NCBI GenBank assembly: GCA_000165345.1
Contig: CM000432.1
Coordinates: 64,001-128,000 of the forward strand
Length of the DNA stretch: 64,000 nt
Direction of reading: 5' to 3'
This document shows positions 4,297-58,000 of the stretch, one piece after another (the first letter of the stretch is position 1; each line of letters starts with the position of its first letter). The notes beneath the pieces are model-generated. The model was not told where the DNA came from. It searched no databases and worked only from the letters and a program-made list of their open reading frames with translations. The position numbers were made by a program, and so were the translations under genes.

Positions 4297-4320
4297 AAAT
4301 AATAATAATAATAATAATAA
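4297..4320. repeat. (AAT)8 microsatellite immediately upstream of the Sec31 ATG.
   Basis: aataataataataataataataat read directly. Confidence 0.9.
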
Positions 4321-4335
4321 TTGAAATTTATTTCA

Positions 4336-9749: not shown

Positions 9750-9922
9750 CCCGCCACATGATTAATTATATGTAGTGGGAAAATTTTAATAAAAATAATG
9801 AAAAATTATCGCAAATATTAAAGATTCAAATATATCTTTTGGTTGATATACAATATTAGAAACCAAGTTTGAAATCGACTTTAACAAATTTTTTTTTGTT
9901 TTAATTAATTTAGGAAGTGAAA

Positions 9923-11710
9923 ATGGATGTAGAGCTCAATGACTTATTTAAGGAGCTAGAAAGAGTACAAAAACGTGAGATAAATAAGAACAAAATAAAT
10001 GAGAGAACATGTATTGAAATTTTATATAAGCTAATAAAGAAGAAAGGTCTAAATTTAATTACTAGCTTAGATGGGGAAACTTTTTACACACATAAATATT
10101 TGCTCAATAATATCCAAAATTTATTGGAGTCTAAGGGAAGAATTTCAATACATGATATTTCAAAAACAATGAAAATTTCAATAGAAGTAATATTAAAGCT
10201 AGTAAAAGATATGGAAAAAGATAATAACTACATTTTTTACAAGAGTGATATAATGACAAGAAAATATGTTGATGATATTTTTTATGATTTAAATCAAGAG
10301 TTACAAGATTTGCATATAGTGGGTTTAATGAAAATTTCAGAAAAAACGGATCTTTCTATTGAATTTATTAAAGAAGAAATTAAGAAAAGAGTGAATAATG
10401 GAGAGTCTGAGATTAAAGGTAATATAGTTTTTGAAACTAATAATAATCCATTGATAATTTCTAATACATATTATAAAATTATTGAATATATGATTAAAGG
10501 TGCATTATTAGTAGCTAAAAAGCCACTATATTTTGATGAAATTATAGATATAAAAATTCAAGATATCTCAATAATAATACAATCAACAAAAAATCTTATA
10601 GAAAAGAACTGGATTAAAGGCTTTATTTACGAAAATAAAATGTATATTCCCGACATTTTTATTAAAGAAGAAATATTATTTTTAATAAATTATTTTAAAA
10701 ATAATGGTTTTTTAGAAATTGAAAAAATTAAAGGTATTTTGAGATATTCTAATTCAAATTTGGAAATTAAAAATCAAAGAATTATTGAATGGTCAAAATT
10801 ACATTTAAGTGATAATATTATAATAATTGATGATTTATTTATTATTAATACTAATAAGGTAGAAATTATAAGGGATAATATTTTACACTCGTGTTTTGAG
10901 CTGAATCCTGGATACATTTACATTAATCACCTTCTTCCATACATTTTAACGAGTGAAATTAACAAAAATTACCATTTTGATATAATAAAACTAATTTATA
11001 AACTAAATAATCACCCAGCTGAAATACAAAGCAATGATTGGCTTTTCGTAACTTATGATGGACCTGAGTCATTATATATAACAAACCTTGACCGTTCTTA
11101 CTTTAAAATTCAATTTGAATTCGAAAGTAATGATATTAAAAATGACTTTGAAGAATTACAAGATATTTCAATCAAAAAATTTCAATTTAATTCAAGAAAA
11201 CATATTTTTAATAATAATTTTAACGCACTTTTATTTATCACAAACTTTAACTTAATTATTAATTCAAGAATAATTTGTAAATTCCAAGATTTTGTTTTTA
11301 GTAAACTAGAAAATACTATAAACAGTATGATTCTCCCTTATTTTCAACTTCTCCCAATCCCAAGTTCTGAGTTTAAGCCTATTAAGTCAAATGAAAAACA
11401 AAAAAACAAACAAATTCATAATTTCATTAATGAATTAGTTTCCAAAAATAATATAAAGGAACTTTTCCTTTCTGAGTTCAAGCAAGATTGGAATGAAATT
11501 ATTAATGATAACCCAAATAATATAGAAATTTTCTCATCAATAAGTTCTTCAAACAATATTCAAGCTAATGAAGATGATTTTCAAGATTTATTATGGCATC
11601 TAATTATTTACTCAATCGCACCATTTATTGTATATATCTATAATAGACGAATGAAATTTGTCTATGATCCCTCCAATGTTTCAAGAACCTTCCATATTGA
11701 AAAAGATTAA
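9923..11710 (+). CDS. UFL1: E3 UFM1-protein ligase 1 (UFL1)-like protein. The ORF-track GTG start at 9917 is replaced by ATG at 9923.
   Basis: N-terminus ...ERTCIEILYKLIKKKGLNLITSLDGETFYTHKYL...KGRISIHDISKTM... aligns with the conserved UFL1 N-terminal domain (ERNCIEIVNKLI...LDGKEYIT...RGGRVNIVDL). Further downstream, FIYENKMYIPDIFIK / NYFKNNGFLEIEKI match UFL1 blocks, as recalled from memory. Confidence 0.6.
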   Translation: MDVELNDLFKELERVQKREINKNKINERTCIEILYKLIKKKGLNLITSLDGETFYTHKYLLNNIQNLLESKGRISIHDISKTMKISIEVILKLVKDMEKDNNYIFYKSDIMTRKYVDDIFYDLNQELQDLHIVGLMKISEKTDLSIEFIKEEIKKRVNNGESEIKGNIVFETNNNPLIISNTYYKIIEYMIKGALLVAKKPLYFDEIIDIKIQDISIIIQSTKNLIEKNWIKGFIYENKMYIPDIFIKEEILFLINYFKNNGFLEIEKIKGILRYSNSNLEIKNQRIIEWSKLHLSDNIIIIDDLFIINTNKVEIIRDNILHSCFELNPGYIYINHLLPYILTSEINKNYHFDIIKLIYKLNNHPAEIQSNDWLFVTYDGPESLYITNLDRSYFKIQFEFESNDIKNDFEELQDISIKKFQFNSRKHIFNNNFNALLFITNFNLIINSRIICKFQDFVFSKLENTINSMILPYFQLLPIPSSEFKPIKSNEKQKNKQIHNFINELVSKNNIKELFLSEFKQDWNEIINDNPNNIEIFSSISSSNNIQANEDDFQDLLWHLIIYSIAPFIVYIYNRRMKFVYDPSNVSRTFHIEKD

Positions 11711-11995
11711 TAACTAGGGCAATAGGATATATTTTAATTTATATTTTTTCCGGGGTTTAAAGCTTTCAACCTGCATTTTTTTTATTTGTTAATTTTGGCG
11801 CGTAAATCCTATTTTTACACAAACTTTTTTTTGAATTAATCTTAACCAGAAAAATTTACTAAATACATTAATAAATCATAAAGTAGTGAAATAAATTGAG
11901 CATTTAAGATTAATTAACTTAATTGATTAAATTCATTAATATCTATAATGTTTCTTAATTTCTAATTATTAATATTGGAATATTATGTTGCTCAA

Positions 11996-14197
11996 ATGAA
12001 CAGGTAAGTATTAAATATCTTTCTTATCCAATAAATACATTACACATTATTTATATATTATAAATAACACTAATAATACCCATAATTAGTTGTGTGTTAG
12101 TGTATTATTGCTTATTTGTGAATCTTTCTAACCAACCATTATAGGGTTTTTCAATCATTACGTAGAAGAGTTTCAAGCTCAGAAGCTAGTAATACTCAAA
12201 ATTCCACTGATTGTAGTACTGACAATTGTAATAATTCTCAAGGTACAAAGAATAAGTCAGATTCGAAAAATACAAAAAATATCAGTAAATCATCAAATTC
12301 TTGTAATACTTCCTCAAAGCCAAGCAGTGATTCAAATAGTGTAAATGATGATCCAAGCTTATCCAAAAATAATGAAATTCAAAGTACAATATCTTCTGGT
12401 ACTGATCCTCCTTCAAACAATGATAACTCTTCGTCAAATTTAAATACATTTCTAAATGTTGATTTAAGTAACAATATAAAACCAAAAGAAATTTTAAATG
12501 ATAAATACAATAATTCATTTCAAAGTATTCAGATTAATAAGTCAGATTCAATTAATGGTGATATCAACATTTCTTTTCCTCCAATAGAATTTATTAAAAA
12601 TGAAAAATTTGCCTTCCTTCAAGCTTATTCTTTAGATTATGAAGATGGAACAAATAGGTCTTCTGATGAAGATTATAATGATAAAAAGGAGTCTAATCAC
12701 GAAATCTCTAACAAAAATAATGATCTAAACAATTATCATTCTCCTGAAGAATCCAATTTTTTAAGCAATACTAATCTTTTATTACCAATTGGAATTGTTG
12801 AAACAAATCATGGAATTTCACTTACTGATGATCCATTCTCTGCACTTGCTCTATTGCAAAATATGAAATCTCCTAATGAAATTCTATTACTTATTAAGAA
12901 AAAACTTATTGCATGTTGTATTACATTCAACTTTACTAACAACACTTATTCAAATCTTAAAGAGAAGAAAAGAGAAACCTTATTAGAGCTTGTTGAATAT
13001 ATTAACAATAATGACCATATTTTTCAAGAAGAAATTATCCCAGATGTACTCTTAATGATCACAAGTAATATATTTAGGCCATTTAATCAATGCCATGCTA
13101 ATCTTAATACAGGAAATTCTTTCTTACAATCTAACAATGCTTCTGGTAATTCAAGCATTCAGTCATCTAATTCTAATAATAATGGCTCATCATTAAACGG
13201 TTCTGTTGGTAATTCATTATCAGATTCAAAAGATGACGAACAACTTTTAGAACCTAGTTGGCCACATTTGCTTGTTATTTATGAGTTCTTTCTTAGATTT
13301 GTTATTAGTCCCCAATTCAGTACAAAAGTTGCAAAAAAATATATTGATAATACTTTCATACTTAAACTTATTGATTTATTTCAAAGTTTTGATCCTAGAG
13401 AAAGGGATTATCTTAAAACTATTCTACATCGAATCTATGGTAAAATTATGCCAAGAAGAAGTTGTATTAGAAAAGCTATGAAACATATCTTTTTGAGAGT
13501 TATTATTGACGGCGAACCTTATAATGGGATTGCTGAATTACTTGAAATTTTTGTCTCAATTGTCAATGGCTTTACAATTCCTCTTAAAGAAGAACATAAA
13601 ATATTTCTTGAAACTGCACTAATACCCTTACATAAAGCAAAATATATTTCTTCTTTCCACCAACAATTGATATATTGCTTAATACAATACATTGAAAAAG
13701 ATACAAAATTGTCTGTACCAATTATTGAAGGTGTTCTAAAGTATTGGCCAATTACTAACTCATCCAAACAAATTTTATTTTTAAATGAACTTGAAGAACT
13801 TTTTGAAATTACTCCTACAAATTACATTGAACCAATTCTAATTCCAATTTTTGAAAGACTTGCAAGTTGTATTCAAAGTCCACATTTTCATGTTGCTGAA
13901 AGAGTTTTATATCTTTGGAACAATGATATAATTGTTAATCTTATTAATGAATATAAATATGAAATATATCCTGTATTGATTAAGGCACTATCATGCAATG
14001 GAAAAAAACTACATTGGAATCCCACTGTACATGGGTTATCTTTTGTTGTTAATAAAGTTTTATCAGATACTGATCCTGAATTATTTTCACAAATTATTGA
14101 GCAATATAATGACGATAGTGCTAATATTGAAATTCAAAAAAAAGAAAGAGAAGAATACTGGAAGTATATTATTGAGCTTGCAGAAAGTATGGATTAA
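11996..14197 (+). CDS. PP2A regulatory subunit B56 (B'), 2 exons: join(11996..12003,12145..14197), with a 141-nt intron.
   Basis: Core EPSWPHLLVIYEFFLRFVISPQF...FDPRERDYLKTILHRIYGKIMPRRSCIRKAMKHIF is diagnostic for B56. The reading frame is open with no ATG for ~700 nt upstream of the track's start, back to an AG acceptor at 12143-12144. A micro-exon ATGAACAG|GTAAGT at 11996-12003 supplies the start (MNR|VFQSLRRRVSSSEAS...). Confidence 0.75.
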
Positions 14198-14450
14198 ACT
14201 AAGAAATTATTACTTTAAAAATAGCTACTAGTGAAATTATTTTACTAATTTTGAATATGTATAGAATATTCGCTTTTTGAGTAATTTTAAAACTAAAATC
14301 AGTTTTTTTTTGTAAACTGGAAGAAAAAAAATCCAATTATTTTAATTCATTATCTCTGAGATTTCACTATTAATAAATTCCAATGCATTACTTCCACCAG
14401 ATAACCAGTTACTTCCATAAATACCATGGAAACCTAAAGAAATTATTAAA

Positions 14451-15895
14451 TTATATAAAATGAGTTATTTTTTGTTGATTAAGAAAATTAATAAACTCAC
14501 CAGTAAATATTTTCAATTTGACATTTACTTTTAATTTTAATAAAATTTCATACATTAACCTTCCCTCATCATAAAGTATATCACTTTTCATTAACACAAT
14601 ACTTGTTTTTGGGAATTTCCTGAGAATATTTGCAGGAGCTAATAAAGGTTGTGATCTCCAATCAAAATAGTTTTCTATATACTTAGATTGATATTGTTTT
14701 TCAAACCATAATAATGAATTCAAATTTAAAAATCCAAATCTAAAGTTTTTTAATTTAGAATTTGTGATACACTTTTGGCATAGTGCAGGATATATTAATC
14801 CCAAGAATTTAACATGATCAACCCATTTACAATAATTATGATATTTTTTTGTTAAACTATTGTTACGTCTCTTATTTTGATCTTTAATACTCAAACAGGA
14901 TGCAATTGAAGATGTTGCTAAATTACCTCCAGCTGAATCTCCTAAAATAACAAGCTTATTTGGATCTAATCCAAATTTTTCTGCATTACAATGTATCCAT
15001 GAAATAGATGCAATAACATCTTCCAATGGTATTGGATACCTCCATTTTGGTGACTTTCTATATTCAATATAAGCAATAACACTTGGTTTATTTAATTTTC
15101 CTAATTCAATTGCATGCCTTTGTAATGTTCTTTCATATGTATCAAAATCGCCAAATACAAATCCTCCACCATGAACAAATATTACAATTCCTGGAGATTC
15201 TGTTTTGCTATCTATATTATGAGTAGAAATATTATCATTTTCATAAATAATCTTGACTTTTGACTCATTAAAATATAAGTCTGAACAGAATTTTTTTGTA
15301 GAGCATTTTATTGGTCTAGTAAGATTTTGTTTTAATTTATAATTCCTCTCTAATAATTCTTTACTAACTATAAAGTTGACAACAAGATCATCCTTATTTA
15401 TTTGTCTATCCATATCCATTGAAATACCATCAGTTAGTTCGCCAAATTCATCAAATTCAATCCAGTGCCTATTTCCCATAATATTTTCAATCTCTAAAGA
15501 TTCATATTCATCTAAAACGTTCCATTCTTTATTTTCACCATGACCAATATTGTGTTCAACAATAATACCCAAATCATTTTTACTTGAAAAACCAAAGATC
15601 AAATTTTTGTAAATAGAACAATCACCTTTTCTAAACTTTTCTATTTCTTCATAATTATCGAGTGAAACTACATTTCTAAATAATGTATATATATAAATCG
15701 CTCTTCCAACAATATTCTCTGTTAATGTTAGATTATCTTCATTGAATAAATTATATATTATTATTCTAAAAAATTATTATAAATATCTCTTCATTACTTG
15801 TTTAGTTACACCAATTCAATGACTTACCCTATTAATAATACTATAATTACAGTATATTTTCTTTTTAAAATTCTTGTTATATTCATTTGACTCAT
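14451..15895 (-). CDS. Alpha/beta-hydrolase (hormone-sensitive-lipase/arylacetamide-deacetylase family) esterase/lipase, 2 exons: complement(join(14451..15765,15828..15895)).
   Basis: Oxyanion-hole HGGGF and nucleophile elbow GDSAGG are present. The ORF-track start is a TTG, and the frame stays open upstream without ATG to an AG acceptor at 15767-15766. The upstream exon ATG...ATAGG|GTAAGT encodes MSQMNITRILKRKYTVIIVLLI(G), a signal/anchor-like hydrophobic N-terminus. Confidence 0.65.
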
Positions 15896-16007
15896 TTTCC
15901 TAAACTATTAAAATCAACAAAATATTACTAAAAAATTTATAAAAAAAATGTTTTCTATTTATCTTTCATTTCAGTACACAAAAAAAATATTACAGTTTTT
16001 AATTGAC

Positions 16008-16019
16008 ACGTGTCATGTG
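16008..16019. promoter_or_regulatory. Second copy of the palindrome TGACACGTGTCA, ~115 bp upstream of the lipase gene start (minus strand). A further half-site acgtgtca lies at 16065-16072.
   Basis: Read directly. On the minus strand it gives ATGACACGTGTCAATTAA = MTRVN-stop, a 5-codon mini-ORF identical to the first five codons of the SPF30-like gene. Confidence 0.45.
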
Positions 16020-16207
16020 GGGAAGTCTTTTGCATGTATACAATCTAACCGGTATTACGTGTCAAGTGGTCGAAAATTATTAAAAAAAATTAGTATTAAA
16101 AATAAACTTATACAAATTTAAAGTAATTTTTGTACAAATATTAGAGAAATTATGAATCGTTTAAAATAGTTAAATTATAGCGATAAACATTTTCTTCGGT
16201 TAATGGT

Positions 16208-17236
16208 TCAATGATGATAATAACCGTTATAATAATTGATATTATTGCTATTAAATTGATTAATATTGTATTGGGTATGTTGATTAGGAGAAAGATTATA
16301 AGATTTTTGAAATTCTTGATCTATATTATAATTATTGATGTGTCTGTTTATTGATTGCTTATTTATTATATTTTGCTGATTATTTTGTGATCTATTGAAA
16401 TGTTTTGGATATATTTGTGTTGATTGAGTAGTTGAAGTAGGAATTTGCATACTCTGAGGATATATTCCTCCGCTGTAGTAATTTAATATTGGTTTTTTAT
16501 TTTGCCCCAATGATTCATTTTCATATGATATATTTTTTAATTGGCTCTTGCTAGCATATAATAATCTTTTTAGTCTAAAATCCTTACTGGAAACAGATTT
16601 AATATCTTGAACTTGAACTGTTCTTCTCTTAGCTCTTCTAGTAAAATTCCAAGAAAAGCTTGTCAAATCTCTAACAAAAAGTTCGCAAGCAATTGCCAAT
16701 AGTGCAGGAACTTCACTTCCAATCATATGATTTACGGCTCCAGAGCACTTGATTATTTTCTTGATTTTTGTATGAGGAAGACATCGGCTCAAAGTTTTCA
16801 ATTCATCTTTACTAAAAACGGGTATATTTGATTGATTTTCATGTGAAATATATTCTTTTGAAATAATATTAATGTCTTCTCTTGAATATATACTTGAGTT
16901 ACTCACTAAAGAGGATGATGAAATAACGGAATTAGAACTTGATGATGTAGATCTAGATGATGGAGCCATATATGATGCAGAATTTAAGGTAAATGAAGAA
17001 AGTGATGTTTGATTAAGTTGATGTGAGCCAACAAATTCTGAAATTGCAGTATCACTACCAGATTTATATGAATCGTTTATATAATTATCACTCAAATCTA
17101 CCTGGCTTATTGTTTCCATTCCATTATACTGAGGTTCACTTTGAGTAGTTAGCATGCTATCAACATTATAGTCAGCTATTTCCTTATTATTTTGTATTAA
17201 GTAGTCCATTATTCCTTGATTATTTGGAAAGCTCAT
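16208..17236 (-). CDS. Histone-fold protein, NF-YC (CBF-C/HAP5)-like or NC2-alpha-like. Start moved to the first ATG.
   Basis: LPHTKIKKIIKCSGAVNHMIGSEVPALLAIACELFVRDLTSFSWNFTRRAKRRTVQVQDI matches the NF-YC histone-fold signature (LP.ARIKKIMK...EAPV.FAKA.E.FI.ELT..AW.H.E..KRRTLQ..DI). Ser/Asn/Gln-rich flanks. Confidence 0.55.
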   Translation of the reverse strand: MSFPNNQGIMDYLIQNNKEIADYNVDSMLTTQSEPQYNGMETISQVDLSDNYINDSYKSGSDTAISEFVGSHQLNQTSLSSFTLNSASYMAPSSRSTSSSSNSVISSSSLVSNSSIYSREDINIISKEYISHENQSNIPVFSKDELKTLSRCLPHTKIKKIIKCSGAVNHMIGSEVPALLAIACELFVRDLTSFSWNFTRRAKRRTVQVQDIKSVSSKDFRLKRLLYASKSQLKNISYENESLGQNKKPILNYYSGGIYPQSMQIPTSTTQSTQIYPKHFNRSQNNQQNIINKQSINRHINNYNIDQEFQKSYNLSPNQHTQYNINQFNSNNINYYNGYYHH

Positions 17237-17698
17237 AAAAAATAGTGTTGCATATACATAAATCAATGAATTCGAGTTTTGAAACTTTCACAGATATAAT
17301 AATATTACTTTGCACTTGTTCGAATTGATATGTTAGTTAATTTATTTGCAACTTAGCAACTTTTAAAATTTTATCTTTCCAAAATCAGAATTAGATATAA
17401 ATTTTTTGCAAAATACTAAATTATATTTTCAGAAATCAATTTCTATAAATATTTACTCAAAGAAATAGAAATTATCCAACTTTTCCACTACAAAGATCTT
17501 ATAGCTCACTTTTTCACCTAGGCCGACATAAATTTAATAATGATCAGTTTTAGCGCCAATGAAATTTCTTTTTCCATTGAAATTCTTAAATATTAAAGCA
17601 AGCAGTTAAATAGTCAAAAAAGCCCCATGGCGGGAATTTTTAAAATATTAAAATAAGAAAAATGCAAAACAAAAGTTATAGAATGTTCTAAAAAAAAC

Positions 17699-18487
17699 CT
17701 AGCAGCAGGACCTTTTTTTACTTCCTTTAGAGTTAAGATCAATCCTGATTGGGTCAACACGTACTCCTTGAGTACCTAAAGGAAGAGTTGCTTTATTTAA
17801 ATCATGTTGATTTGCTGTGAGTTGTCTTTCACTTCTTAATGTATAAATTTCAGATAGAATACGGTGAAATGCTTCGTCAACATTTGACGAATTTAGGGCA
17901 GAAGCCTCCATGCATGCCATACCTTCTCTTTCTGAAAAAGCACATGCTTCTTCTTGAGTTACTGTTCTAAGATTCCTAAGATCTGATTTATTACCAACAA
18001 GTAAAACAACAATGTTGGGATCAGCATGATCTCTCAGTTCTTTGAGCCATCTTTCAACATTCTCAAAAGATGATCTTTTTGAAATATCATAGACTAGTAG
18101 TGCTCCTACTGCTCCTCTATAGTATGCAGATGTAATTGCTCTATATCTTTCTTGCCCAGCCGTATCCCATATCTGAGCCTTGATGACTTTCCCTTCAGTA
18201 ATTATGCTTTTTGTAGCGAACTCCACTCCAATTGTGGATTTTGACTCTAAATTGAATTCATCTCGGGTAAATCTATTAAGATAACACAAATATTAAAATT
18301 TTTTAATCACTATTTCATTAACTCACCTTGAAAGTAAATTAGATTTCCCTACTCCGGAATCGCCAATTAGAACAACTTTTTTAAAAAAAAAAAGAGTAAT
18401 AAGATATTAGTAGTTTCCAGATAAAATTCTTGATAATAAAAACTTACTTTTGTACAGATAATCATAATGCTCATCTTTTGAACTCAT
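17699..18487 (-). CDS. RAB11: Rab11-family small GTPase, 3 exons: complement(join(17699..18272,18327..18375,18448..18487)).
   Basis: Exon 1 [13 protein letters not shown]|GTAAGT. Exon 2 (I)[16 protein letters not shown] (P-loop)|GTGAGT. Exon 3 [20 protein letters not shown]...[29 protein letters not shown]...GNKSDL...C-terminal CC. Reading frames join cleanly (AAA-A|TT -> ATT; AG|A -> AGA). Confidence 0.8.
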
Positions 18488-19058
18488 TTTTATATATAAA
18501 AATTTTTAATAAATCGCCCTTCGGCCTTGCTAATTTCAATATCAAATATAGAAACTTTCAGAATATCAATTTAAACAAATTTTTTTGCAATTCTATTAAT
18601 TCCCTAGTATTATCTGAACTCTTTATTGAAACTTGAGTTAATAAATTCTTCTTTTATCAAGCCTGCCGAGTCTCGAATGATATAATACCAATCCAAGCGA
18701 GACCTCGACTGGACTAAATAGTGACAAATTCTATAAGAAGCAATTACAAATAAAGAATTCTTCACTTTACTTTTATTCACAACTTAATCCTTTTTCGACT
18801 TTTGTCCTCACAAAAATATTACAAAGCTATGAGGGGAATTACTTTGGGCGCCGAAAAAGCTTATGTCTAATTTATAGCATGCAGAATTAGAAACATTTAT
18901 AACTTAAGAAAAAGTAATCGAGGAGAAGATAGAAAGCGAAGTTAAGGAAGTATGTAGCAATATATAATACAATTTATAAATTTGTCGATAATTGGCATAC
19001 TATATGTAATACTATTAGTAATCAATCGGAAAATATTAAAAGAAATAATAAAGTTGAA

Positions 19059-21515: not shown

Positions 21516-21917
21516 CGATGCAAGGCTTTCCCACCCTATCACACTTAATGTATTCTAGCTCTAATTTGCAGGATCTCCTGCAAATAATTTATTTGGAATC
21601 TTTTTTCCGCTTAGCTGCTAATAAATTATTATTCCTAAAGTTAATATTTTTTTTTAGCGTTCATAGTTACTATTGACCCTCCTTTAACTAAAATAAGCCC
21701 GCCAACACCCGGTTAATATGTTTGAATAATTTCAGATCGCACCTAAAGGAATATTCATATTTGCTAATAAACGAACAAGAAATAAATTAGAAACAAAATT
21801 CAAGTATAAAAAACTTATGAATAAATTTGGAAACTTTTAATTCATTTCTTTTTTGAATTTCATTTTTCAAACGTAGAAAAAATCTGAAAGTTTAATTAAT
21901 TATATTACTCTTATAAA

Positions 21918-37523: not shown

Positions 37524-39743
37524 TCAATTTTCTGGAATAATTTCCTTGAGAACTACACCAATTTCTATTGAAAATGTTTCAATCATCTCGCTTGGAGCTT
37601 GCATTATATATAATGCTCGTGGATCTTCCATATTTATGGGGGATTCCAAATATGTTAACTTCAAATTGTTTGTAGAAGCTGGGTTAGACGAGCCGTTGAG
37701 TCCAGAACAATAATTAAATCCAGCATTCCCCTGTTTAAACATTGCAACTTCAAGCCCAATATTTTGGCCAAGAGTTAAATCTTGAAGAGGTGAAATGTTG
37801 AATAATGGTCCACCAACATCTCCTTTTGCTAATACTAACTGGCTCCACTTTCCTGAAACAGGAATTACTAGCCCAAGCCTAACAATATCATTTATCTGCT
37901 CAAGTATAGGTACTGATAATTCTATCCCTTGTTTGCCAGTAATGTGCAAAGCAATACAATCAGCTATTGCAATCCAACGAATTAATGAAAATGCTTCCTT
38001 GTTTCTAGATTTAACTTTTTCCGAACTTTGTTTATTAATTTTTCTTCTACCTCTTTTTGATTTGAGTTTTGAAGATACCAAATTATGAAAAAGTGTTTTG
38101 TCATCCTTCTTTGAAACCTTTGAAGCAACATATGCAGAAACAAGTAGTAATTTAGTGAAATAAGGCATATTGATTTGAGAAACATTTTTCAAGAATTCAT
38201 AGTTTAATATCCCATTAGTATTAATATTACTTGAGATTAAATCTCCTTGAAATAACTCTGGTAAAAAGTGAGAATATATATTCTTTGTTAAAGTACCATA
38301 ATGCCTTTTAAACCTATTTAATAATGTTTGTACAATAGAATACACTTCATCTTCATAGTTTTCATTGATTGTGAAGAATAATTCACCAGAAACAAGTGGA
38401 AGTAAGAATACTGGCCATAAACATTGAACTTTAAAGATAATTTCTCTAAAATCTGATCTTAAATATGGATGTAAAATAGTGATAATTTCTGCGATAAATT
38501 CTGTCCATATTGAGTAAAGTATATCAATTGGGATAAAGCTTTGTTTATTTGTATCATCTTTTAATAAATTTAGTTTTATCCCATTTGAATTTGTATCAGT
38601 TTTGGGAATGAAATCTACTGAGCCCTTAATATATGAATTTAGTAGTGTATTTACTAAAAATGATTGCGAACTTTTTCTGTCATAAACTTTTAATATTTCA
38701 TAATTTAGATCTATATTTTTGATATCAGTATTTAATCTTAAATTTGCCATAATGTCAAAACTTTGTATATCATCATAATTTGAAAACCATATTACTGGAA
38801 AAGGAGAGTGAGAACAGAAAAAATCTTCTGGAATTCCATAATTATCTATAAATATCAAAGAAAAATTTATATTTATTATAAATTTTTCTTTTTTAGCTGG
38901 AAGTATTAATACATCTCTCAAATGTTCATGTAATTTTATTAGTGTTAATAGTAAGTCTGGCCTATTTTTTGAAATAGTTGTTACATCTTTTACAATCAAA
39001 AAAATACTTCTCGATTTCACCTTATCAACTTCTTCAATCTCTCCATCATATGTACTTCCTCCACTATTTAAATCATCATCTAGGTCACTATCCCCCTTAC
39101 TGTTATGCTTTTGCAAATACTCAGTATATTCTTTTTTAATTAATCTTAATTCGTCTATAAATTCAATAATATTGTTCGCTGATGAAGAGCTCTCTAATTC
39201 GCTCTCAAACAAACCAATTCTGGATCTTCTTTTTTTACTATTAAAAATCCCTTTTTTAATTAATTTCTTTCTAATTTGTTCGACTGGCCTTACAAATAAG
39301 TTTTCGATAGAAATTTTATTAATACATCCTCCTTTTGAATTACATAACCACTTTGTGTAAGCTCCATTCATATACCCAAAAATAGAGTCATTTTTTTTAA
39401 GCATATCCTTTACAAGTGAATATTTTCCTGTTCCTGGCATTCCTATAACTTGTAAATATGGAATTGAATTAGTATTACTTCCTATTGTATTTGCCAGTTG
39501 GAAAATTTCTTGAAATCTTGAATTTCCATATTTTCTACATAATGAATGTATTGTGGGCTGAATTTCTTCTGGATAATATTTGAGTAAATCTTGAATCAAT
39601 TGTTCACTTGCATCAATATTTCCTAAATCTTCTTTACTTGACTCTATACTATGTATTCTACGAATATTTCCCGTAAATTCATTTTCATTATTTTCATAAT
39701 CAGTTTCAACTTGGCTTGTTCGCTTCCTTTTTTCACCACCCAT
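37524..39743 (-). CDS. AAA+ ATPase of the ORC/Cdc6 family (possibly ORC5- or ORC4-like).
   Basis: Walker-A-like 'IGMPGTGKYSLVKDML' followed by 'FGYMNGAYT' (ORC5-like ...F.NC.EC..). Basic N-terminus with KRKR. Divergently paired with the XPG gene across an intergenic region containing TTTCCGC motifs. Confidence 0.35.
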   Translation of the reverse strand: MGGEKRKRTSQVETDYENNENEFTGNIRRIHSIESSKEDLGNIDASEQLIQDLLKYYPEEIQPTIHSLCRKYGNSRFQEIFQLANTIGSNTNSIPYLQVIGMPGTGKYSLVKDMLKKNDSIFGYMNGAYTKWLCNSKGGCINKISIENLFVRPVEQIRKKLIKKGIFNSKKRRSRIGLFESELESSSSANNIIEFIDELRLIKKEYTEYLQKHNSKGDSDLDDDLNSGGSTYDGEIEEVDKVKSRSIFLIVKDVTTISKNRPDLLLTLIKLHEHLRDVLILPAKKEKFIININFSLIFIDNYGIPEDFFCSHSPFPVIWFSNYDDIQSFDIMANLRLNTDIKNIDLNYEILKVYDRKSSQSFLVNTLLNSYIKGSVDFIPKTDTNSNGIKLNLLKDDTNKQSFIPIDILYSIWTEFIAEIITILHPYLRSDFREIIFKVQCLWPVFLLPLVSGELFFTINENYEDEVYSIVQTLLNRFKRHYGTLTKNIYSHFLPELFQGDLISSNINTNGILNYEFLKNVSQINMPYFTKLLLVSAYVASKVSKKDDKTLFHNLVSSKLKSKRGRRKINKQSSEKVKSRNKEAFSLIRWIAIADCIALHITGKQGIELSVPILEQINDIVRLGLVIPVSGKWSQLVLAKGDVGGPLFNISPLQDLTLGQNIGLEVAMFKQGNAGFNYCSGLNGSSNPASTNNLKLTYLESPINMEDPRALYIMQAPSEMIETFSIEIGVVLKEIIPEN

Positions 39744-39833
39744 TTCTACGTTATCAATATATAAATATTGTTAAATAAATATATATTTATATATTTATTT
39801 ATATAAATTTTCATGCTTTTCAAAATTATTTTA

Positions 39834-39870
39834 TTTTTTCCGCTAACTTTCCCCCGAAATAACTTTCCGC
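39834..39870. promoter_or_regulatory. Cluster of E2F-like TTTCCGC / TTTCCCCCGAAA motifs in the 672-bp divergent promoter between the ORC-like ATPase and XPG nuclease genes.
   Basis: ttttttccgc (39834-39843), tttcccccgaaa (39848-39859) and tttccgc (39864-39870). The canonical E2F site is TTTSSCGC, and both flanking genes are classical E2F-type replication/repair targets. Confidence 0.45.
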
Positions 39871-40415
39871 TTAATTAATATATTTTTATTTTACATTTGA
39901 TAAATCTTAAATATTAAAAAAAAGAGTTTGAATAGTTTGCCTAATTAGAAATTACAACAAAACTCTATTATATCTTTGTCCTTAACTTTTTATTATTTAT
40001 CTGTTCACCATTTTCTTCTTTCTTATGAAATATCTTTAAAAATTCATATTTATTATATTTATATTTGTAAATATACTTTTCTTTTTTTTAAAAAAAAAAA
40101 AAGTCATTCTTAAAATTGTAATGCAACTTTAACTTCATGTGGATGAGCACCGGTATATGATTTTTTTTTTCAACAAAATGTAAAAATGTTAGAGCATGTC
40201 AAAATTAGTCATTTAGGCGGTAATAATTTTGTCATTTGGACAAAAGAATCCAATAATAAAAAAAGTCAAATAATAATTACAATTAATTGATAAATAAATA
40301 AATATGAAGAATGAAACAACAAAAGTTTATTGATTAAGTTTATTAAGTTGATTTGAGTAAAATTGTTTGAAAATATTCTTAAGAAGCTGATAATTTTGCA
40401 AGTTTAATAAACAAA

Positions 40416-43400
40416 ATGGGGGTTAAAGGTTTGTGGGACATTGTTGCTCCATCTGGAATAAGAGTTAAGCCAGAAACTTTAGAGGGACAAATATTGGCTA
40501 TAGATGCAAGTATTTGGCTAAAGCAATTTTTGATGGGATTAAAGGACAAAGAAGGAAAAATACCTCAAGGTGCGCATTTATTGGGTTTTTTTAAGAGACT
40601 ATGTAAACTATTATACTATGGTATATTACCAGTAATAGTTTTTGATGGAACTCCTCCAGATATTAAGAAGAGAACTTTGGAGTTAAGAAGAATGCAACGA
40701 GAAATGTCAGAAATTAATATGAGAAGAGTAGCAAATAAATTATTATTAAATACAATAAGACTAAGAGTTGCTAAAAAGGTTAAAGATAAGGTAAGAAAGA
40801 GGAAAGATAAAAAGCTCTCAGATGAAGAATATAAAAACCAAATTGATAATGGTGAGAGTGAGGAAGAAAAAGAAGAAGAACAAGTACAAGAACAAGAGGA
40901 AAGTGAGAGCGAGGAAATTAATCAATCAGCTACAATAAATGATAAAAATAAAGTTGAATACAAGAGTAAAAGAAAAGCTCACCATTCAATTCAAGAAAAA
41001 ATTAGTTTAACTCCCAAATTATTTTCTTCAGAAGATGAGAATAATATTACTGATGATGATGAAGATGTATATAATAGACCAAATCGTAAATTTAAGAAAT
41101 ATGGAAGATACCAACAAGTTCATCACTTAATCAATGAAACAGAAGAAAATTCAGAAGCACCAACAAGTTATTTTCCAGTAATGGGATTTTTGAGTGAGAG
41201 AAGAAGATTAGATGAAATGCCTGAAATAGATACAAATTTATTTTCAATGCCAATTCAAATTAGCTCAAGTCAAAAAATAGCTTCAAAAAAAATGACCAAA
41301 ATTGAAGATTTAAATGCATTTCTCAGAGCAACTGAATCAAGCAATGATGAAAGAAGATTAATGGATCTACCATTAGATACAGAAATAGATCCACAAGTAT
41401 TTGAGCAATTAAACTCAAAACTTCAATATGAAATTTTGATCCAACTTAGAGATGCTTGGATTAATGCATTAAGAAGTAATGCTGTTGATACTAAAGATAA
41501 TATGAGTCAGTTTAGTAATTCTCAGATTGAGTGTTATTTGAGATATTTGAGAATTAATCAAGAAATAGAGAGATTAAAGGTGAGAATGGCTAAAGAATGT
41601 GAAGAAGAGCAAATGGAATCAGTTAATGAAGAAATTAAAGTTGTTGAATATGGTCAAATTTATGATCCTGACAATAATGATTTTAATAATAATATTCAAG
41701 ATTGTTCATCTTCTAGTATATTTGAAGATCAAAGTAAAGAAACTATCAATGAAGAATTTAATATTGATCTTAATATAGATGATTCTACATTTACTGGTAA
41801 AATTATTAACTTTTCAAAGAAAATTGGTATGGATAATAAAGATATTGATACATTTAATCGTAATGATACATTATTAAGTAGTGATACATTATCAATGAAA
41901 GGATATCATAATTTATCTAAAATTACAAAAAAAGAAAGAATTAAATTTCTTCAAAGTACTGATTACACAAAAAATGATAATATTGTATCCAATCCACTAA
42001 ATACTCCATTATTTGAACTTGAGAAACTTTTGAATAACGAAAATATACAAGAAAGTCAAATTCAAAATAAAGTAAACAATACCTTTAATGATATTAATGA
42101 TATTGAAAGACTTGAATTATTAAAAGAAAATGTGGATGAATTGTTTAAAATTAATGAACCAATTCAAAAATTTGAAGAAAAAGATGATGGATTTATTGTA
42201 GATATTGAGAATCGAGTTTATCAAAATGAAGATGATAAAGAAGTGAATAAGAAAGATGATTTTGGTAATGAAGGTTTTGATGATAGTTGTGATGATGATG
42301 ATGATGATGATTGGCAAGACATTGAATGGGAAAGTGCTAACACAATTCTTACTAAACCACAAGAAAATAATTTTGATTCTTTACAAGTTATTAAAAGTAT
42401 TATTCTTTCTAATGATTTAGTTTCCAATATTGAGCCAAAACTCGATAGTATTTTGGGATTAGAAAAGATTGAAGAAAATGATGAATCAAAACAAGAACAA
42501 GTTATTTTAATCGACTCTGAGGAAATTAAAGAACAAAAAAATGATATATATTTGATTGAAGATTCAGGCAAACATGAAGATGGCTTTAAAAAAACGGAAG
42601 TTGGTCAATTCGAAGGTCAAATACAAGATTTGGAACCAGAAAAAGAACAGGAACAAGAGCACCAATCAGAACAGGAACCAGAACAAGAACCAGAACAAGA
42701 ACTAGAACATGAACCTGACCAAGATCAAGATCAAGAACAAAAACCAGAACAAGAACCCGAGCGCCAACCAGAACTTGAGCAAGAACCAGAACCTGATCAA
42801 AAACAAGAACACCAACCAGAACCCGACCTAGAACCAGAACTATTAGACTATTCCTATTTGGAGGATATTAAAGAAATCATCCAAAAGGAAGATGAACAAA
42901 TCATGGACATGAACCTTTTTAGTGACCATTATGCAATATATGACAAAAATTTGGATGAAATTCTTTTTGAATTGGAAAAAGAACAAGAAGAATTAAGCTT
43001 AGAATTTACTAAGCATGATATCATTTTGAATTCTGAAATAACAAAAGAAATGCAATATCAAATATGTCTGCTTTTAAAAGCTCTTGGAATTCCTTGGATT
43101 GATTCACCAGGTGAAGCAGAAGCTCAAGCTTCTATTTTAACTCAATTAAATATTTGTCATGGTGTATTATCTGATGATTCTGATTGCTTAATTTTCGGAG
43201 CAAAAAAAATCTTTCGTAATTTCTTTTCTGGAAATAGTGTTGAAATGTATGATCTAAATCAAGTTAAAAAGTATCTTGGAATTGAAAAACAAGAACAATT
43301 CTATATTCTAGCAATCTTACTTGGTTGTGATTATACTGTTGGAGTTAATGGAATTGGACCAGTTAATGCTGTTGAAGTACTTAAAGCATATCCTGAACTT

Positions 43401-43859
43401 GAAGATATGATTTTATTCCAAAATTGGTCAATGAATAAGTTTCAAGATAAAAGTAATGATCTAATTAATGATACTTTTGAAAGAGCTGAATTTAAAAGAA
43501 ATCATTCCAATTATAGACACTCTTGGGTATTTCCTCCAGATTTCCCATGCTTTGATGCAATTCATGCAATGAAAAATCCAAATATTATTTCAAATTTTAA
43601 ACCAACCTTTGGTAAAATTGATAAAAATTCAACTATTGAATTAATTACAAATAATACAAATCTAACTCATGAAAAAGTATCTCTAATTATTGATCCAATC
43701 ATTAAAAATCAAAATAATAAATACAAACAAACAAAAATTGATGAATTCTTAATTCAAAATCAATCTATTAAATTTAATCATCATCATATTCAAAAAGATG
43801 AAAAAGTTGCATCCATTATTTCTAAAAGAATGAAAAAGGCTCTAAATCATCTCAAGTAA
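40416..43859 (+). CDS. XPG/Rad2 (ERCC5)-family structure-specific nuclease.
   Basis: XPG-N domain at the start (MGVKGLWDIVAPSG...IDASIWLKQF...VFDGTPPDIKKRTLELRR). A long acidic spacer with a tandem EQEPEQEP repeat. XPG-I and H3TH domains near the C-terminus (LLKALGIPWIDSPGEAEAQASILTQ...DSDCLIFGA...ILLGCDYTVGVNGIGPVNAVEVL). Confidence 0.75.
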   Translation: MGVKGLWDIVAPSGIRVKPETLEGQILAIDASIWLKQFLMGLKDKEGKIPQGAHLLGFFKRLCKLLYYGILPVIVFDGTPPDIKKRTLELRRMQREMSEINMRRVANKLLLNTIRLRVAKKVKDKVRKRKDKKLSDEEYKNQIDNGESEEEKEEEQVQEQEESESEEINQSATINDKNKVEYKSKRKAHHSIQEKISLTPKLFSSEDENNITDDDEDVYNRPNRKFKKYGRYQQVHHLINETEENSEAPTSYFPVMGFLSERRRLDEMPEIDTNLFSMPIQISSSQKIASKKMTKIEDLNAFLRATESSNDERRLMDLPLDTEIDPQVFEQLNSKLQYEILIQLRDAWINALRSNAVDTKDNMSQFSNSQIECYLRYLRINQEIERLKVRMAKECEEEQMESVNEEIKVVEYGQIYDPDNNDFNNNIQDCSSSSIFEDQSKETINEEFNIDLNIDDSTFTGKIINFSKKIGMDNKDIDTFNRNDTLLSSDTLSMKGYHNLSKITKKERIKFLQSTDYTKNDNIVSNPLNTPLFELEKLLNNENIQESQIQNKVNNTFNDINDIERLELLKENVDELFKINEPIQKFEEKDDGFIVDIENRVYQNEDDKEVNKKDDFGNEGFDDSCDDDDDDDWQDIEWESANTILTKPQENNFDSLQVIKSIILSNDLVSNIEPKLDSILGLEKIEENDESKQEQVILIDSEEIKEQKNDIYLIEDSGKHEDGFKKTEVGQFEGQIQDLEPEKEQEQEHQSEQEPEQEPEQELEHEPDQDQDQEQKPEQEPERQPELEQEPEPDQKQEHQPEPDLEPELLDYSYLEDIKEIIQKEDEQIMDMNLFSDHYAIYDKNLDEILFELEKEQEELSLEFTKHDIILNSEITKEMQYQICLLLKALGIPWIDSPGEAEAQASILTQLNICHGVLSDDSDCLIFGAKKIFRNFFSGNSVEMYDLNQVKKYLGIEKQEQFYILAILLGCDYTVGVNGIGPVNAVEVLKAYPELEDMILFQNWSMNKFQDKSNDLINDTFERAEFKRNHSNYRHSWVFPPDFPCFDAIHAMKNPNIISNFKPTFGKIDKNSTIELITNNTNLTHEKVSLIIDPIIKNQNNKYKQTKIDEFLIQNQSIKFNHHHIQKDEKVASIISKRMKKALNHLK
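42640..42850 (+). repeat. In-frame tandem hexa/octapeptide repeat (EQEPEQEP / EPEQEL...) inside the XPG spacer region.
   Basis: Repeating gaacaagaaccagaacaa units; translation EQEQEHQSEQEPEQEPEQELEHEPDQDQDQEQKPEQEPERQPELEQEPEPDQ. Confidence 0.85.
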
Positions 43860-55045: not shown

Positions 55046-58000
55046 TTATTTTTGTAAAGCAGCAGATATTCTCCTCTCTAATTTTTTAGCAATAACTTGC
55101 ATCTGCTGATCTAGGAATTGTTTCCAAGCGATTGCCTCTTCCTGTTTATTGTGGGAAGATGCTGAGAATTCTGAGTCCCATTGCTTCATTCCTTTCTTCC
55201 ATTGCCTTAAACTATGGAGTTCGTGTTCCAGTAACTTTCTGGCAATATCCTTGTTTGGCACAACAGAATTGCTTGTGACCGACCCACTATTTGGACGCAA
55301 ACTTTGGAGAATTGATGCAATCTTGGAAGCTTGAGCGTTAATTTGGTTTTGCTCATGAACGCTACCTCCCATAACTGATGATGAAATGGATGGGTAATGT
55401 AAGTTTGTATTGTTCATAAGTGAGCCTGGTGGTGGAGGATTAATACTGGAAGAGGCTGGAAGATTGTTGGTGTTCATATTGGGGCCATAACCATTTGATA
55501 TACAGTAATCCATATTTAAGTTATTGTCATATATTTGAGAAGAATTCGTATTCGTTACTGCATTGTTATGAGCTGGTTGGATGAAGCTAATCCCAGTTAC
55601 GCCATTAGTTTTCTCTCCTGGTCTTGAAATGTTTCCATTAAACTTTTCATCAGTTTGAACGGTTCTGTTTATATTTGATTCATTACTCCTCTTTAATTCA
55701 TTCAATTCGTTCTTAATGTCCGTAAGTAGTGGCATTAAGACCATAGGTGACTCTGGATACATTATAGGGGAGTTGTTTGTTAATGTTGGGAGGATTTGCT
55801 GATTTGAAGAGGAGTCACTTGTTGATATGTAGGTAGACTTTAAGAGTGTTGGTACTCTTGCATCCTGTGGTTTTGACATTTCAGGAACTACTTGAACTTC
55901 ATTTGGATAACCTGGCAGAGCTGAAGAGTCACAGGCATGCTCTCCTACATCAGACCCTCCCATATTTTTAACTGCAGGAGAAGTAGAACTTGCTCTTATC
56001 CTAGAGCTCTTACTCTTTTCTGTGAATTGCCTTAGCTCCTTTAAAAGATTCTTCTCTCGGCTTTCTGTGGCCTGGAGCTTCTCATATAGCTTCTTCATGG
56101 TTTTTTCCAAAGAACCGATTACATCACTGTTCTTTTTATATACTTCTGAAATTTTTGCCTCGTTTATATTTTCGTTTGCGGTTGAACCCTTATTCGACTC
56201 TCCCCCATTCATGCAGGGTGTCTGAACGCTGGCAGTATTCTGTCTTATATCCCTACTATCATGTGGCCCAGCTCCGTCTGATGAGCCACAACCAAGAGAG
56301 CTTCCAATACTATTAATTTGCTTATGGAGATGCAAGATTGTATAAAGGAGTTCTTCTTTTTGTTTCATCTCTTCTTGAATTTGCTGTTGGAGAACTTGGC
56401 AAGTCTTCTGAGTTTCTCTTTCAATATCCCGGTTCCTCAATTCTAAGTCTTCAATCATTCTGCGTAGCTCACAAATTTCCTTATCCTTATTGGAAAAGCT
56501 CTTTCCTTCATATAACTCTTTTTCACGACTCTTTATCACCCCCTCCATCTCTTGTAAAAGGTCCTCACTTCTTTGAATAGCCAGCTCTCGCTCAAAAAGT
56601 TGTTTATCTCTTTCTTCAATCCTAATCAACTCATCAAGGAGAGGTTTTCTCTCCAACTGGAGTTGTCTCTCCTTCTCATCCAACTCTCTCTCGCGATCTT
56701 TAAGCTCCAAATCTCTCTCCTTCAAATCTGCCTCTCTACGATCCATGGAACGCTCTCTCTCGATCAATATAGCCTCTCTTCTACCTAAATTGGACTCTTT
56801 AGTTCTATGTGTGCTCTCTTTCTCCTCTATTTTTACCTCCCTTGCAAGGAGACTTTCCTCAACAAGCTTGGTTCTCTGCCCTAAACTGCTCATTTCTCTC
56901 TCCAAATCATTCAAACCCATCTCCCTCTCTAGTAAGCCCTTCTCCTTCTCCATTAACTTATTCTCACGGTCAATTAACTTATTTTCTTTTTCAACCAACT
57001 TACTCTCACGCTCTATAAACTTCCCTTCCCTATCTTTAAGTCTGCTTTCCTTTTCATACAACTGTCCTTCTCTCTCCTCAAGAGATCTTCTCTCAGACTC
57101 GCTCAGAGCAGCTCTCTGACTATTCAATAGAGCCTCTCTGCCATCCAGCTCTTTTTCTCTTGTTGAAATATTCTTCTGACGCTTATCCAACTCAAACCAA
57201 AACTCTTCAAACTCCTTTTGGCGGCTCTCAAGCTCATTAATATAAACATCAAATTCCTTTTGCTTATTCTCCAAATCCACCTTCTGTGAGCTTAACAAGC
57301 TCTCCAAATCTTTTACTGATTTTTCTCTCTCCTCAAGCTCTCTTAGACGAGACTCCTGATGAGCCACTTGAGACCTCCTTGCATCTTGGCTTTCTCGCTC
57401 CTCCTTTAATGCTTTTCTGCTTTCATCCAACTCCTTTCTGATATCTCTCAATTCCATTTCCAAACTTCTAAGTTGTGATTCATATTGCAGGCTCATCTTC
57501 TGTAAACTATCATTATTTGCATGCTCCAACTTTACATATATTTGGCGCTCATCCTCTTCAATCTGTTTTGACTTTACCGCCAAAGCCTTCTCCAGGCTTA
57601 CAAGCTCGTCCTTGAGTGAATCTAGGGACTTCTTTTTTTCGTTAAGTTCAAGTTTCTGAGACCTAAGTTCAATACCTTGTTTATCTAGTTCGTCTTTTTG
57701 AGAGTTAAGCTCTGCTCTGAGTTTCTCTGTTTCAGCTTTTCCGGCATCAACCTCTTTCATTTTGTGTTCCAATTCACTCTTAATTTGCTCCAAGTTTCTT
57801 CTTTCAGCCTCTATTTCGCCACGATTTTTCTTTACCTCCTTCTTCAATCGATCATATTCAGCCTTACCATTCTCCAGCTCTAATTTTGCATTTTCGATTT
57901 CAGCTAGCCTCTTTTTATAGTCTGAATCCTGTTCTAACTGAACCTTTTCCATATTCATTGAATAATCTTCAACCATCCTGTTGAAACTTTGTTCTCTTAA

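Follow-up and report, generated by a model that had tools for sequence, protein, structure and literature searches.

A conserved, non-canonical E2F-like block upstream of ORC5 and a separate module upstream of XPG in the Cryptosporidium parvum group

The ORC5 gene and the XPG/Rad2 nuclease gene of the Cryptosporidium parvum group stand head-to-head on chromosome 4, within a 64,000-nucleotide stretch of contig CM000432.1 (assembly GCA_000165345.1, positions 64,001 to 128,000), hereafter the window. A sequence-only reading had taken the 672-bp spacer between them for one bidirectional promoter with canonical E2F sites serving both genes. We put a probability of roughly 55% on a different arrangement, namely two divergent gene-specific promoters, in which the block of proposed sites would be an ORC5-proximal, weakly E2F-like module. 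The block is deeply conserved, lacks a canonical E2F core and lies close to ORC5 and far from XPG, which possesses a conserved module of its own. The published expression of the two genes also differs.

The gene assignments rest on the open reading frames (ORFs) and on Pfam matches, which bear out the head-to-head arrangement and the length of the spacer (39744-40415). ORC5 (cgd4_430; 37524-39743, minus strand, 739 aa) matches ORC5_C (PF14630, E=1.7e-15). The nuclease gene (cgd4_440; 40416-43859, plus strand, 1147 aa) encodes XPG_N at residues 1-96 and XPG_I at residues 891-972 with a long spacer between them, which is the XPG/Rad2 architecture. The supplementary tables of Oberstaller et al. 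2013 (PMC3734150) name the two genes 'ORC5 like AAA+ ATPase' and 'XPG', respectively. The window is AT-rich (19-40% GC), with long uninterrupted ORFs.

The orthologous locus was compared in nine other Cryptosporidium sequences, which makes ten with the window. ORC5 orthologues are annotated as ORC5 or ORC5-like AAA+ ATPase in nine species, the closest named relatives being C. tyzzeri (98% identity), chipmunk genotype I, C. ubiquitum, C. canis, C. felis, C. bovis, C. ryanae and C. muris. The head-to-head order is kept in 9/9 species whose sequence includes the spacer, which measures 467-694 bp outside the window; a distance below 1 kb between head-to-head genes is one property expected of a shared bidirectional promoter. 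The Logan run SRR31860986 (L008 and L015) represents a further Cryptosporidium, whose ORC5 and TBCC proteins are 69% and 61% identical to those of the window; no named species matches it among the hits.

The conserved block upstream of ORC5

The three motifs of the sequence-only reading are found at the positions claimed for them. They are referred to below as module A, and a further conserved block separates them from the ORC5 start codon.

39834-39843, minus strand: site 1 of module A; plus strand TTTTTTCCGC, ORC5 sense strand GCGGAAAAAA; the ORC5 ATG is 91-100 bp downstream
39848-39859, minus strand: middle unit of module A; plus strand TTTCCCCCGAAA, ORC5 sense strand TTTCGGGGGAAA
39864-39870, minus strand: site 2 of module A; plus strand TTTCCGC, ORC5 sense strand GCGGAAA; the ORC5 ATG is 121-127 bp downstream
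39804-39824, minus strand: conserved block that separates module A from the ORC5 ATG, with a GCATG core; ORC5 sense strand TTTGAAAAGCATGAAAATTTA

Since the count of TTTCCGC in the window is not significant, conservation rather than copy number served as the test. In an alignment of four species (the parvum group, C. tyzzeri, chipmunk genotype I and C. ubiquitum), 49% of all spacer columns are invariant. The four longest near-invariant blocks, given as plus-strand sequences, are the following.

39804-39824: TAAATTTTCATGCTTTTCAAA, 19/21 columns invariant
39835-39859: TTTTTCCGCTAACTTTCCCCCGAAA, 23/26 columns invariant, the block of the sequence-only reading and the longest near-invariant stretch of the spacer
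40039-40052: AAAATTCATATTTA
40209-40226: TCATTTAGGCGGTAATAA, covering part 2 of the XPG-proximal module described below (16/18 columns invariant)

Site 1 is kept as (GTTA)GCGGAAAA in C. tyzzeri, chipmunk genotype I, C. ubiquitum, L008, C. bovis and C. ryanae, and reads GGGCGGACAAA in C. canis and ACCGGAAAG in C. felis. The middle unit is invariant across the four intestinal-clade species and degenerate in C. canis and L008. Site 2 appears as TTAAGCGGAAAA in C. tyzzeri, chipmunk genotype I and C. ubiquitum and as GGGCGGAAAA in C. canis; this second TTTCCGC is found in 4/4 aligned species at variable spacing. The block nearest to ORC5 reads GGCATGAC in C. canis and ACATGAA in C. felis and L008. 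Direct repeats are also seen within module A, with TAACTTTCC... recurring in the next unit at a 16-nt period and TTTCCGCT(A/T)A at a 27-nt spacing. The distance between sites 1 and 2 ranges from 27 to 45 bp among the intestinal-clade species and C. canis, and such variation of repeat spacing between species is typical of protein-binding DNA.

In 8/10 Cryptosporidium sequences, TTTCCGC has the same orientation and is less than 150 bp away from the ORC5 ATG (about 50-127 bp across species). Among these sequences are C. canis, C. bovis, C. ryanae and L008, where it stands 50-125 bp from the ATG despite barely alignable spacers; the mean column identity over the ORC5-proximal 160 bp is 48% in the more distant species. 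In C. tyzzeri, chipmunk genotype I, C. ubiquitum and C. bovis, the ORC5-proximal copies are the only ones on either strand of the 12-kb loci. A first-order Markov simulation trained on each spacer, which gives the probability of at least one copy in 150 bp, puts the chance of TTTCCGC near the ORC5 ATG at 0.003-0.02 per species and the joint chance over three poorly alignable lineages (C. canis, C. bovis/C. ryanae and L008) at ~10^-6. Conserved beyond chance, the block is under purifying selection, and its conservation makes it very probably a functional ORC5-proximal cis element. The proposal of a retained replication/repair E2F element holds in that a real, selectively maintained element of E2F-like architecture stands beside a replication gene. 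A replication/repair-specific regulon is not supported: in the window, canonical cores stand in front of housekeeping genes of many kinds (proteasome, Rab, TBCC, transporter and ribosomal ones among them), in agreement with the literature, where the motif is the commonest upstream motif of the genome.

Separate placement and expression of ORC5 and XPG

The best E2F-like site of the spacer, overlooked by the sequence-only reading, is XPG-proximal. Together with an ApiAP2-type motif it forms a second unit, module B, and two further features lie between it and module A.

40194-40199, plus strand: module B part 1, GCATGT, an ApiAP2-type TGCAT / ACATGY motif
40212-40226, plus strand: part 2 of module B, TTTAGGCGGTAATAA / TTTAGGCGGTAA, the best E2F-like site of the spacer, with the XPG ATG 200 bp downstream
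40138-40158, plus strand: conserved block of the XPG side, TGTGGATGAGCACCGGTATAT
40082-40102, no strand: T8A13 homopolymer junction in the middle of the spacer

Module B (40194-40226) has the form (T)GCATGT(C/A), ~17 bp, (A/G)GGCGG(T/G/C)AA and is found 75-213 bp from the XPG ATG in 9/9 species. Its GGCGG(T/G/C)AA part is present in all nine of them, as a perfect GGGCGGGAAA (GGGCGGGAAAAG) in C. canis, and the C. muris copy of the module is inverted, with AAATGGCGGTAAC beside TGCATGCATGCA. Within the XPG-side block, TGTGG and ACCGGTATA are invariant in the four aligned species, and C. felis also carries TGTGG and ACCGGT. The T8A13 tract is kept with variable length in related species and could constitute a nucleosome-excluding boundary between two promoters. 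Poly-T is the second most enriched motif in C. parvum peaks of the assay for transposase-accessible chromatin with sequencing (ATAC-seq).

A separate observation concerns the ApiAP2-type part of module B. The window reads AGCATGT at 40193-40199, and 8/8 other species read TGCATGT, which means that the first base of the TGCAT core was lost in the parvum-group sequence.

The two modules occupy clearly different positions relative to the genes. Module A is separated from the ORC5 ATG by 91-127 bp and from the XPG ATG by 546-582 bp, and the distance between modules A and B is 300-380 bp across species, with the T8A13 tract between them. Most canonical E2F-like cores of the window are found ~30-360 bp from the nearest downstream ATG. 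Judged by ATG distances, the block is thus not an element placed for both start sites: module A is near the ORC5 ATG, and a separate module is near that of XPG.

The published primers used in reverse transcription PCR (RT-PCR) of cgd4_420, cgd4_430, cgd4_440 and cgd4_450 map exactly within the matching ORFs of the window (39195-39294 for cgd4_430 and 43356-43539 for cgd4_440) and, as a consequence, the published expression data apply to it. The medians from Table S1 of Mauzy et al. 2012 (RT-PCR, 2-72 h), expressed as percentages of each gene's maximum, are as follows.

ORC5: 2 h 0, 6 h 91, 12 h 18, 24 h 100, 36 h 44, 48 h 72, 72 h 12
XPG: 2 h 3, 6 h 16, 12 h 6, 24 h 11, 36 h 96, 48 h 100, 72 h 87

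The two profiles do not correlate significantly (Spearman 0.32). ORC5 was called cyclic, with peaks at 6, 24 and 48 h (Mauzy et al. 2012), whereas XPG peaks at 36-72 h and is ~10^2-10^4-fold less abundant, the ORC5/XPG ratio being 150-18,000. The genes also fall into different expression clusters (Oberstaller et al. 2013, PMC3734150). ORC5 belongs to cluster 37 (membership 0.92) with housekeeping genes and over-represented motifs 3 and 14. XPG belongs to cluster 69 (membership 0.98), whose other members include DNA polymerase alpha (cgd3_4290), a DNA polymerase epsilon subunit (cgd2_2500) and cgd4_450, and whose over-represented motif is motif 4, TTTGGCGGGAAV, of the same type as module B. The co-expression expected by the sequence-only reading is therefore not seen in the published time course. 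Taken with the placement of the modules, this makes it probable that the spacer holds two separate promoters and that the block is not shared. By the sequence tests applied, the ORC5-XPG spacer does not group with shared bidirectional promoters.

Independently of this question, the 3' end of the XPG ORF shares 8 bp (43852-43859) with that of the convergent 2423-aa PSME4/Blm10-like ORF (cgd4_450). As both genes belong to cluster 69, their transcripts must overlap in antisense.

In the arrangement that we favour, the block would act as DNA and bind a sequence-specific activator driving periodic ORC5 transcription at 6, 24 and 48 h. Read on the ORC5 sense strand, this putative promoter would consist of two GCGGAAA(A) sites flanking CGGGGGAAA, followed by the conserved AAGCATGAAAA block and, 60-90 bp on, by the ATG. 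The likeliest factor would be an E2F/DP dimer bound to low-affinity, non-canonical sites (T-rich flank, GCGG, A-rich flank), and two or three weak sites in tandem may restrict the response of the promoter to high E2F/DP activity. The tandem GCGGAAA(A) sites and the GCATGA block, all within ~130 bp of the ATG, could in this way confer periodic and relatively high expression. The XPG promoter would be independent and composed of the ApiAP2-type (T)GCATGT, ~17 bp and the near-canonical E2F motif-4-type GGCGGTAA; this module would direct low, late-peaking expression together with the polymerase genes.

E2F resemblance and rival explanations

The E2F consensus TTTSSCGC is an 8-mer, and TTTCCGC is a 7-mer. 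The 8-mer occurs 11 times in the window vs 0.86 expected and 0 times in the spacer 39744-40415; TTTTCCGC and CTTTCCGC of module A depart from it by one and two mismatches, respectively. Similarly, no [CG]GCGC[CG] or GGCGGG core is present in the spacer, with 25 such cores in other intergenic regions of the window. The core of module A, AGCGGA, agrees with GGCGGG at 4/6 positions and misses both outer G/C positions; that of module B, GGCGGT, agrees at 5/6. The T-rich 5' and A-rich 3' flanks of an E2F site do surround both GCGG cores on the ORC5 sense strand (GTTA-GCGG-AAAAAA and TTAA-GCGG-AAAG). The excess of GGCGCC palindromes elsewhere in the window is real (13 vs 0.4 expected). Contrary to the earlier view that the spacer sites come closer to the metazoan consensus, these palindromes mostly read TTTGGCGC(C)AAA / TTTGGCGCCAAA, which is an exact match to it, and TTTGGCGCC, also found elsewhere in the window, fits it better than TTTCCGC.

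Sites were also scored with a position weight matrix (PWM), crude in that it was built from only nine sites, the GGCGGG-type ones of the window itself, which score 14.5-18.6 bits. Ranks refer to ~128,000 window positions.

TTTAGGCGGTAATA, 40212-40225: 12.2 bits, rank 12
TTTCCGC site, 39864-39870: 7.1 bits, rank 119
TTTCCGC site, 39834-39843: 6.3 bits, rank 181
TTTCCCCCGAAA: 5.3 bits, rank 252

Module A is thus far below the training sites and module B is intermediate. In C. canis, module A (GGGCGGAAAA and GGGCGGACAAA; GGGCGGA(A/C)AA) reaches 5/6 core positions and is shifted toward the E2F core, and module B is the canonical GGGCGGGAAAAG at the orthologous position. The description of the TTTCCGC sites as canonical is thus not supported, and module A does not group with canonical E2F sites by its sequence. 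It may nevertheless work as a weak E2F site; we give its binding by E2F/DP slightly less than an even chance.

The GC content of the spacer amounts to 44% in C. canis and 40% in C. felis vs 19-21% in the parvum group. Both modules persist through this shift, and in C. canis both move toward the GGCGGG core.

Several observations, in addition to the missing outer G/C positions, weigh against the reading that we favour. TTTCCGC is not enriched in the window (3 copies vs 1.72 expected; 30/100 shuffles reach 3), and GCGGAAA is absent from the published catalogue of 25 motifs over-represented in C. parvum (Oberstaller et al. 2013, PMC3734150). The C. muris spacer is without TTTCCGC, and that of C. 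felis holds degenerate versions only (TTTCCGG and TTTTTCGC). The only other copy in the window (21604-21610; sense-oriented, 89 bp upstream of the TBCC ATG, with flanks CTAAGCGGAAAAAAG) corresponds to GCGTGGGAAAAGG in C. ubiquitum and GTGTGGGGAAAG in L015, a drift toward G-box-like sequence. As to expression, the RT-PCR primer pairs differ between genes and the replicates are noisy. A small 6 h > 12 h < 24 h pattern is visible in both genes, which makes some shared input possible, and GCGG(N)AA is common to both modules, so that the same factor could act from separate sites. Finally, the block may sit in the ORC5 5' untranslated region (UTR) or at the transcription start site (TSS).

The rival explanation that survives best takes the GCGGAAA(A) repeats for a distinct cis-element read by a non-E2F factor (ApiAP2, Myb or zinc-finger) and belonging to a small, possibly pre-replication-complex, regulon that the catalogues missed. 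Indeed, the 7-mer is strictly kept, while the outer positions that define an E2F site are consistently A in the AT-rich species, and the motif lies outside the published set of 25. Furthermore, each of the three copies in the window is located between genes, in sense orientation and 89-127 bp from an ATG, and they share the flanks TA(A)GCGGAAAA; ORC5 shares an unusual cyclic expression profile with ORC2 (Mauzy et al. 2012). On the other hand, three copies in 64 kb give no enrichment signal and the TBCC copy is not strictly conserved. The GC-rich spacer of C. canis carries GGGCGGA(A/C)AA, which is nearer to the E2F core, and C. muris has TTTGGCGGTA on the ORC5 sense strand, 211 bp upstream, in place of the absent GCGGAAA sites. 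In addition, the text of the protein-binding microarray (PBM) study mentions no AP2 of such specificity. Collectively, these data make a non-E2F factor unlikely, though it is the strongest of the alternatives. A related and rather doubtful possibility is that GCGGAAAA, in tandem and sense-oriented at ~50-125 bp from the ATG, forms a Cryptosporidium cis-element which the catalogues do not yet contain and which differs from the abundant E2F-like motifs GGCGCC/GGCGGG. Either a particular pairing of E2F and DP or another factor would read it, and it would confer the periodicity (peaks at 6, 24 and 48 h) by which ORC5 and ORC2 stand out from most E2F-motif genes.

The single bidirectional promoter proposed by the sequence-only reading, in which the E2F sites at 39834-39870 would co-regulate ORC5 and XPG within an S-phase replication/repair regulon, seems improbable. 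It draws on the head-to-head order kept in all nine species, on the GCGG(N)AA-type elements at both genes and on their common weak rise at 6 h and 24 h. More than half of the C. parvum ATAC-seq regulatory peaks are, moreover, annotated as bidirectional and are rich in the E2F motif. Nevertheless, the block is strongly asymmetric (~100 bp from the ORC5 ATG vs ~560 bp from that of XPG), a separate module is deeply conserved at XPG, the genes belong to different expression clusters at very different levels, the sites are non-canonical, and the E2F-like motifs of the genome are not restricted to replication genes.

An equally improbable explanation is that the block forms part of the ORC5 core promoter, TSS or 5' UTR, as an initiator-like sequence, a positioning element or a signal in the mRNA leader, rather than an upstream activator site. 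Its fixed orientation and narrow distance from the ATG (50-127 bp across species) would fit such a role, as would the short, often overlapping UTRs of Cryptosporidium transcripts. However, no significant RNA structure was found in the ORC5 leader, where the fold scores z = -1.6 vs shuffled sequences and the block is unpaired in the centroid structure, and repeated copies at variable spacing are typical of factor-binding sites. A search of the spacer for non-coding RNAs and ORFs gave no Rfam match at E<=1 and no tRNA, and the only ORFs wholly within it are of low complexity and <=45 aa; with the variable site spacing, this led us to drop an RNA or coding explanation. Other motif families were likewise discarded. 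STAT/GAS-like TTCN4GAA and HSE-like readings of TTTCCCCCGAAA have the wrong spacing and involve families not expected in Apicomplexa, no CHR adjoins GCGG as a CDE/CHR element would have it, CGGGGGAAA is no exact fit to the G-box G.GGGG or to KKGRGGGGRR, and the TAGTTT at ~39935, which recalls motif 14 (MAACTA), is unconserved.

Other promoters of the window and known systems

All canonical E2F-like cores of the window ([CG]GCGC[CG] or GGCGGG; 25/25) are intergenic, though ~75% of the window is ORF. They are found, for example, at 2367, 4068, 17629, 19659, 23109, 28447, 31114, 32472, 36269/36282, 52104 and 54759/54773, upstream of genes for proteasome alpha, WD40, Rab, TBCC, SET, MFS transporter, CDP-OH transferase, TPR, HEAT/GDT1, Nup54 and RPL18 proteins. 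The ORC5-XPG spacer is among the few promoter-containing spacers of the window without such a core. A GCGGAAA upstream of Rab in C. ubiquitum was rejected as a conserved element, since it aligns to TTTGTTTAAA in the parvum group and is thus due to chance or unconserved.

Some neighbouring regions show conserved elements of their own. Upstream of TBCC (minus strand), 21566-21583, 21660-21685 and 21727-21743 are nearly identical in the parvum group, C. ubiquitum and L015. These blocks comprise a perfect palindrome, TTGCAGGAnATCCTGCA, ~50 bp from the ATG, a 26-mer, AAAGGAGGGTCAATAGTAACTATGAA, and GGTGCGATCTGAAATTA beside a canonical TTGGCGGGC site, and they match no motif that we could name. A parvum-ubiquitum conserved inverted repeat, GTCGAGGTCTCG...CGAGACTCG, lies at 18665-18709 (minus strand), ~180-220 bp upstream of the first exon of Rab (ATG at 18487). 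A 5' leader with structure, a small RNA and a palindromic binding site are all conceivable; Rfam gives no match at the gathering threshold. Near-perfect E2F-like sites also occur inside long ORFs, namely TTTTGGCGGTAAAAT at 6398-6412 in the 1364-aa WD40 gene, and TTTGGCGC with TTTGGCGGTAAAG at 57537-57585 within a 1343-aa unannotated gene. They could be internal promoters, signs of unrecognised introns or gene boundaries, or chance occurrences.

Cryptosporidium is the only apicomplexan genus known to retain E2F/DP, and the E2F-like motifs TGGCGCCA and TTTGGCGGGAA are its most over-represented upstream motifs, present in 161/200 expression clusters (PMC3734150). Replication and glycolysis genes are among those upstream of which they are over-represented, and they dominate the sporozoite ATAC-seq peaks. 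The E2F genes of C. parvum are cgd1_1570 and cgd6_1430 (cpbgf_1001560 and cpbgf_6001430 in the newer annotation), and the DP partners are cpbgf_7003650 and cpbgf_8001850. In the same species, PBM work has verified TGCAT as a site bound by ApiAP2, and a combination of the E2F and AP2_1 motifs has been reported for a 12-h-specific cluster. Partners of the pRb family are reported to be absent in C. parvum. Our literature search for locus-specific data found cgd4_430 and cgd4_440 in no main text, and likewise no functional study of E2F binding in Cryptosporidium and no demonstration that CpE2F/DP binds any of these motifs.

E2F-like motifs occur so widely in Cryptosporidium that they hardly explain timing, and the ORC5-XPG spacer offers a small, defined test case. 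A conserved non-canonical element stands by the periodic ORC5, and a near-canonical site ~350 bp away precedes the differently expressed XPG; the locus bears on the question of whether E2F-like sites of low and high strength direct distinct programmes of expression. If GCGGAAAA did account for periodicity, it would represent a genuine S-phase or pre-replication-complex switch where E2F-like motifs otherwise look general. For the rest, our result mainly corrects the first reading, the element being non-canonical and probably ORC5-specific and unshared, and describes no new kind of system. E2F-like motifs are already known from Cryptosporidium promoters, replication genes among them, as are many bidirectional regulatory regions; new are the deeply conserved non-canonical variant at ORC5 and the separate motif-4-like site at XPG, neither individually described before.

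In metazoans and plants, E2F sites of the TTTSSCGC type are found in the promoters of ORC1, CDC6, MCMs and PCNA. What the ORC5 promoter has in common with these is that its gene serves replication initiation, that expression is periodic and that E2F-like elements stand in tandem ~100 bp upstream. It differs from them in that the 8-mer consensus is not reproduced and in that the E2F-like motifs here mark most housekeeping promoters rather than an S-phase set. The divergent gene pairs with bidirectional promoters of compact genomes share with this locus the head-to-head distance of <1 kb and a mid-spacer poly(dT:dA) tract, whereas two separately conserved modules 300-380 bp apart and discordant published expression set ORC5 and XPG apart from them. 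With respect to the ApiAP2 motif TGCAT(GCA) / ACATGY (Oberstaller 2013, 2014), module B has TGCATGT in 8/9 species and the ORC5 side a conserved GCATGA, but the window itself has AGCATGT, with the T lost, and the ORC5-side block is without a full TGCAT. The closest relatives of the spacer sites are C. parvum motif 3, DTTGSCGCCH, and motif 4, TTTGGCGGGAAV (Oberstaller et al. 2013, PMC3734150; Mullapudi et al. 2007, PMC1779779), which are likewise promoter-proximal and intergenic, with T- and A-rich flanks around a GCGG core. Compared with these, module A (AGCGGAAA) is without the outer G/C positions, scores far lower and is not enriched in the window, whereas module B (TTTAGGCGGTAA) differs from motif 4 by one mismatch, and motif 4 is the motif in which the XPG cluster 69 is enriched.

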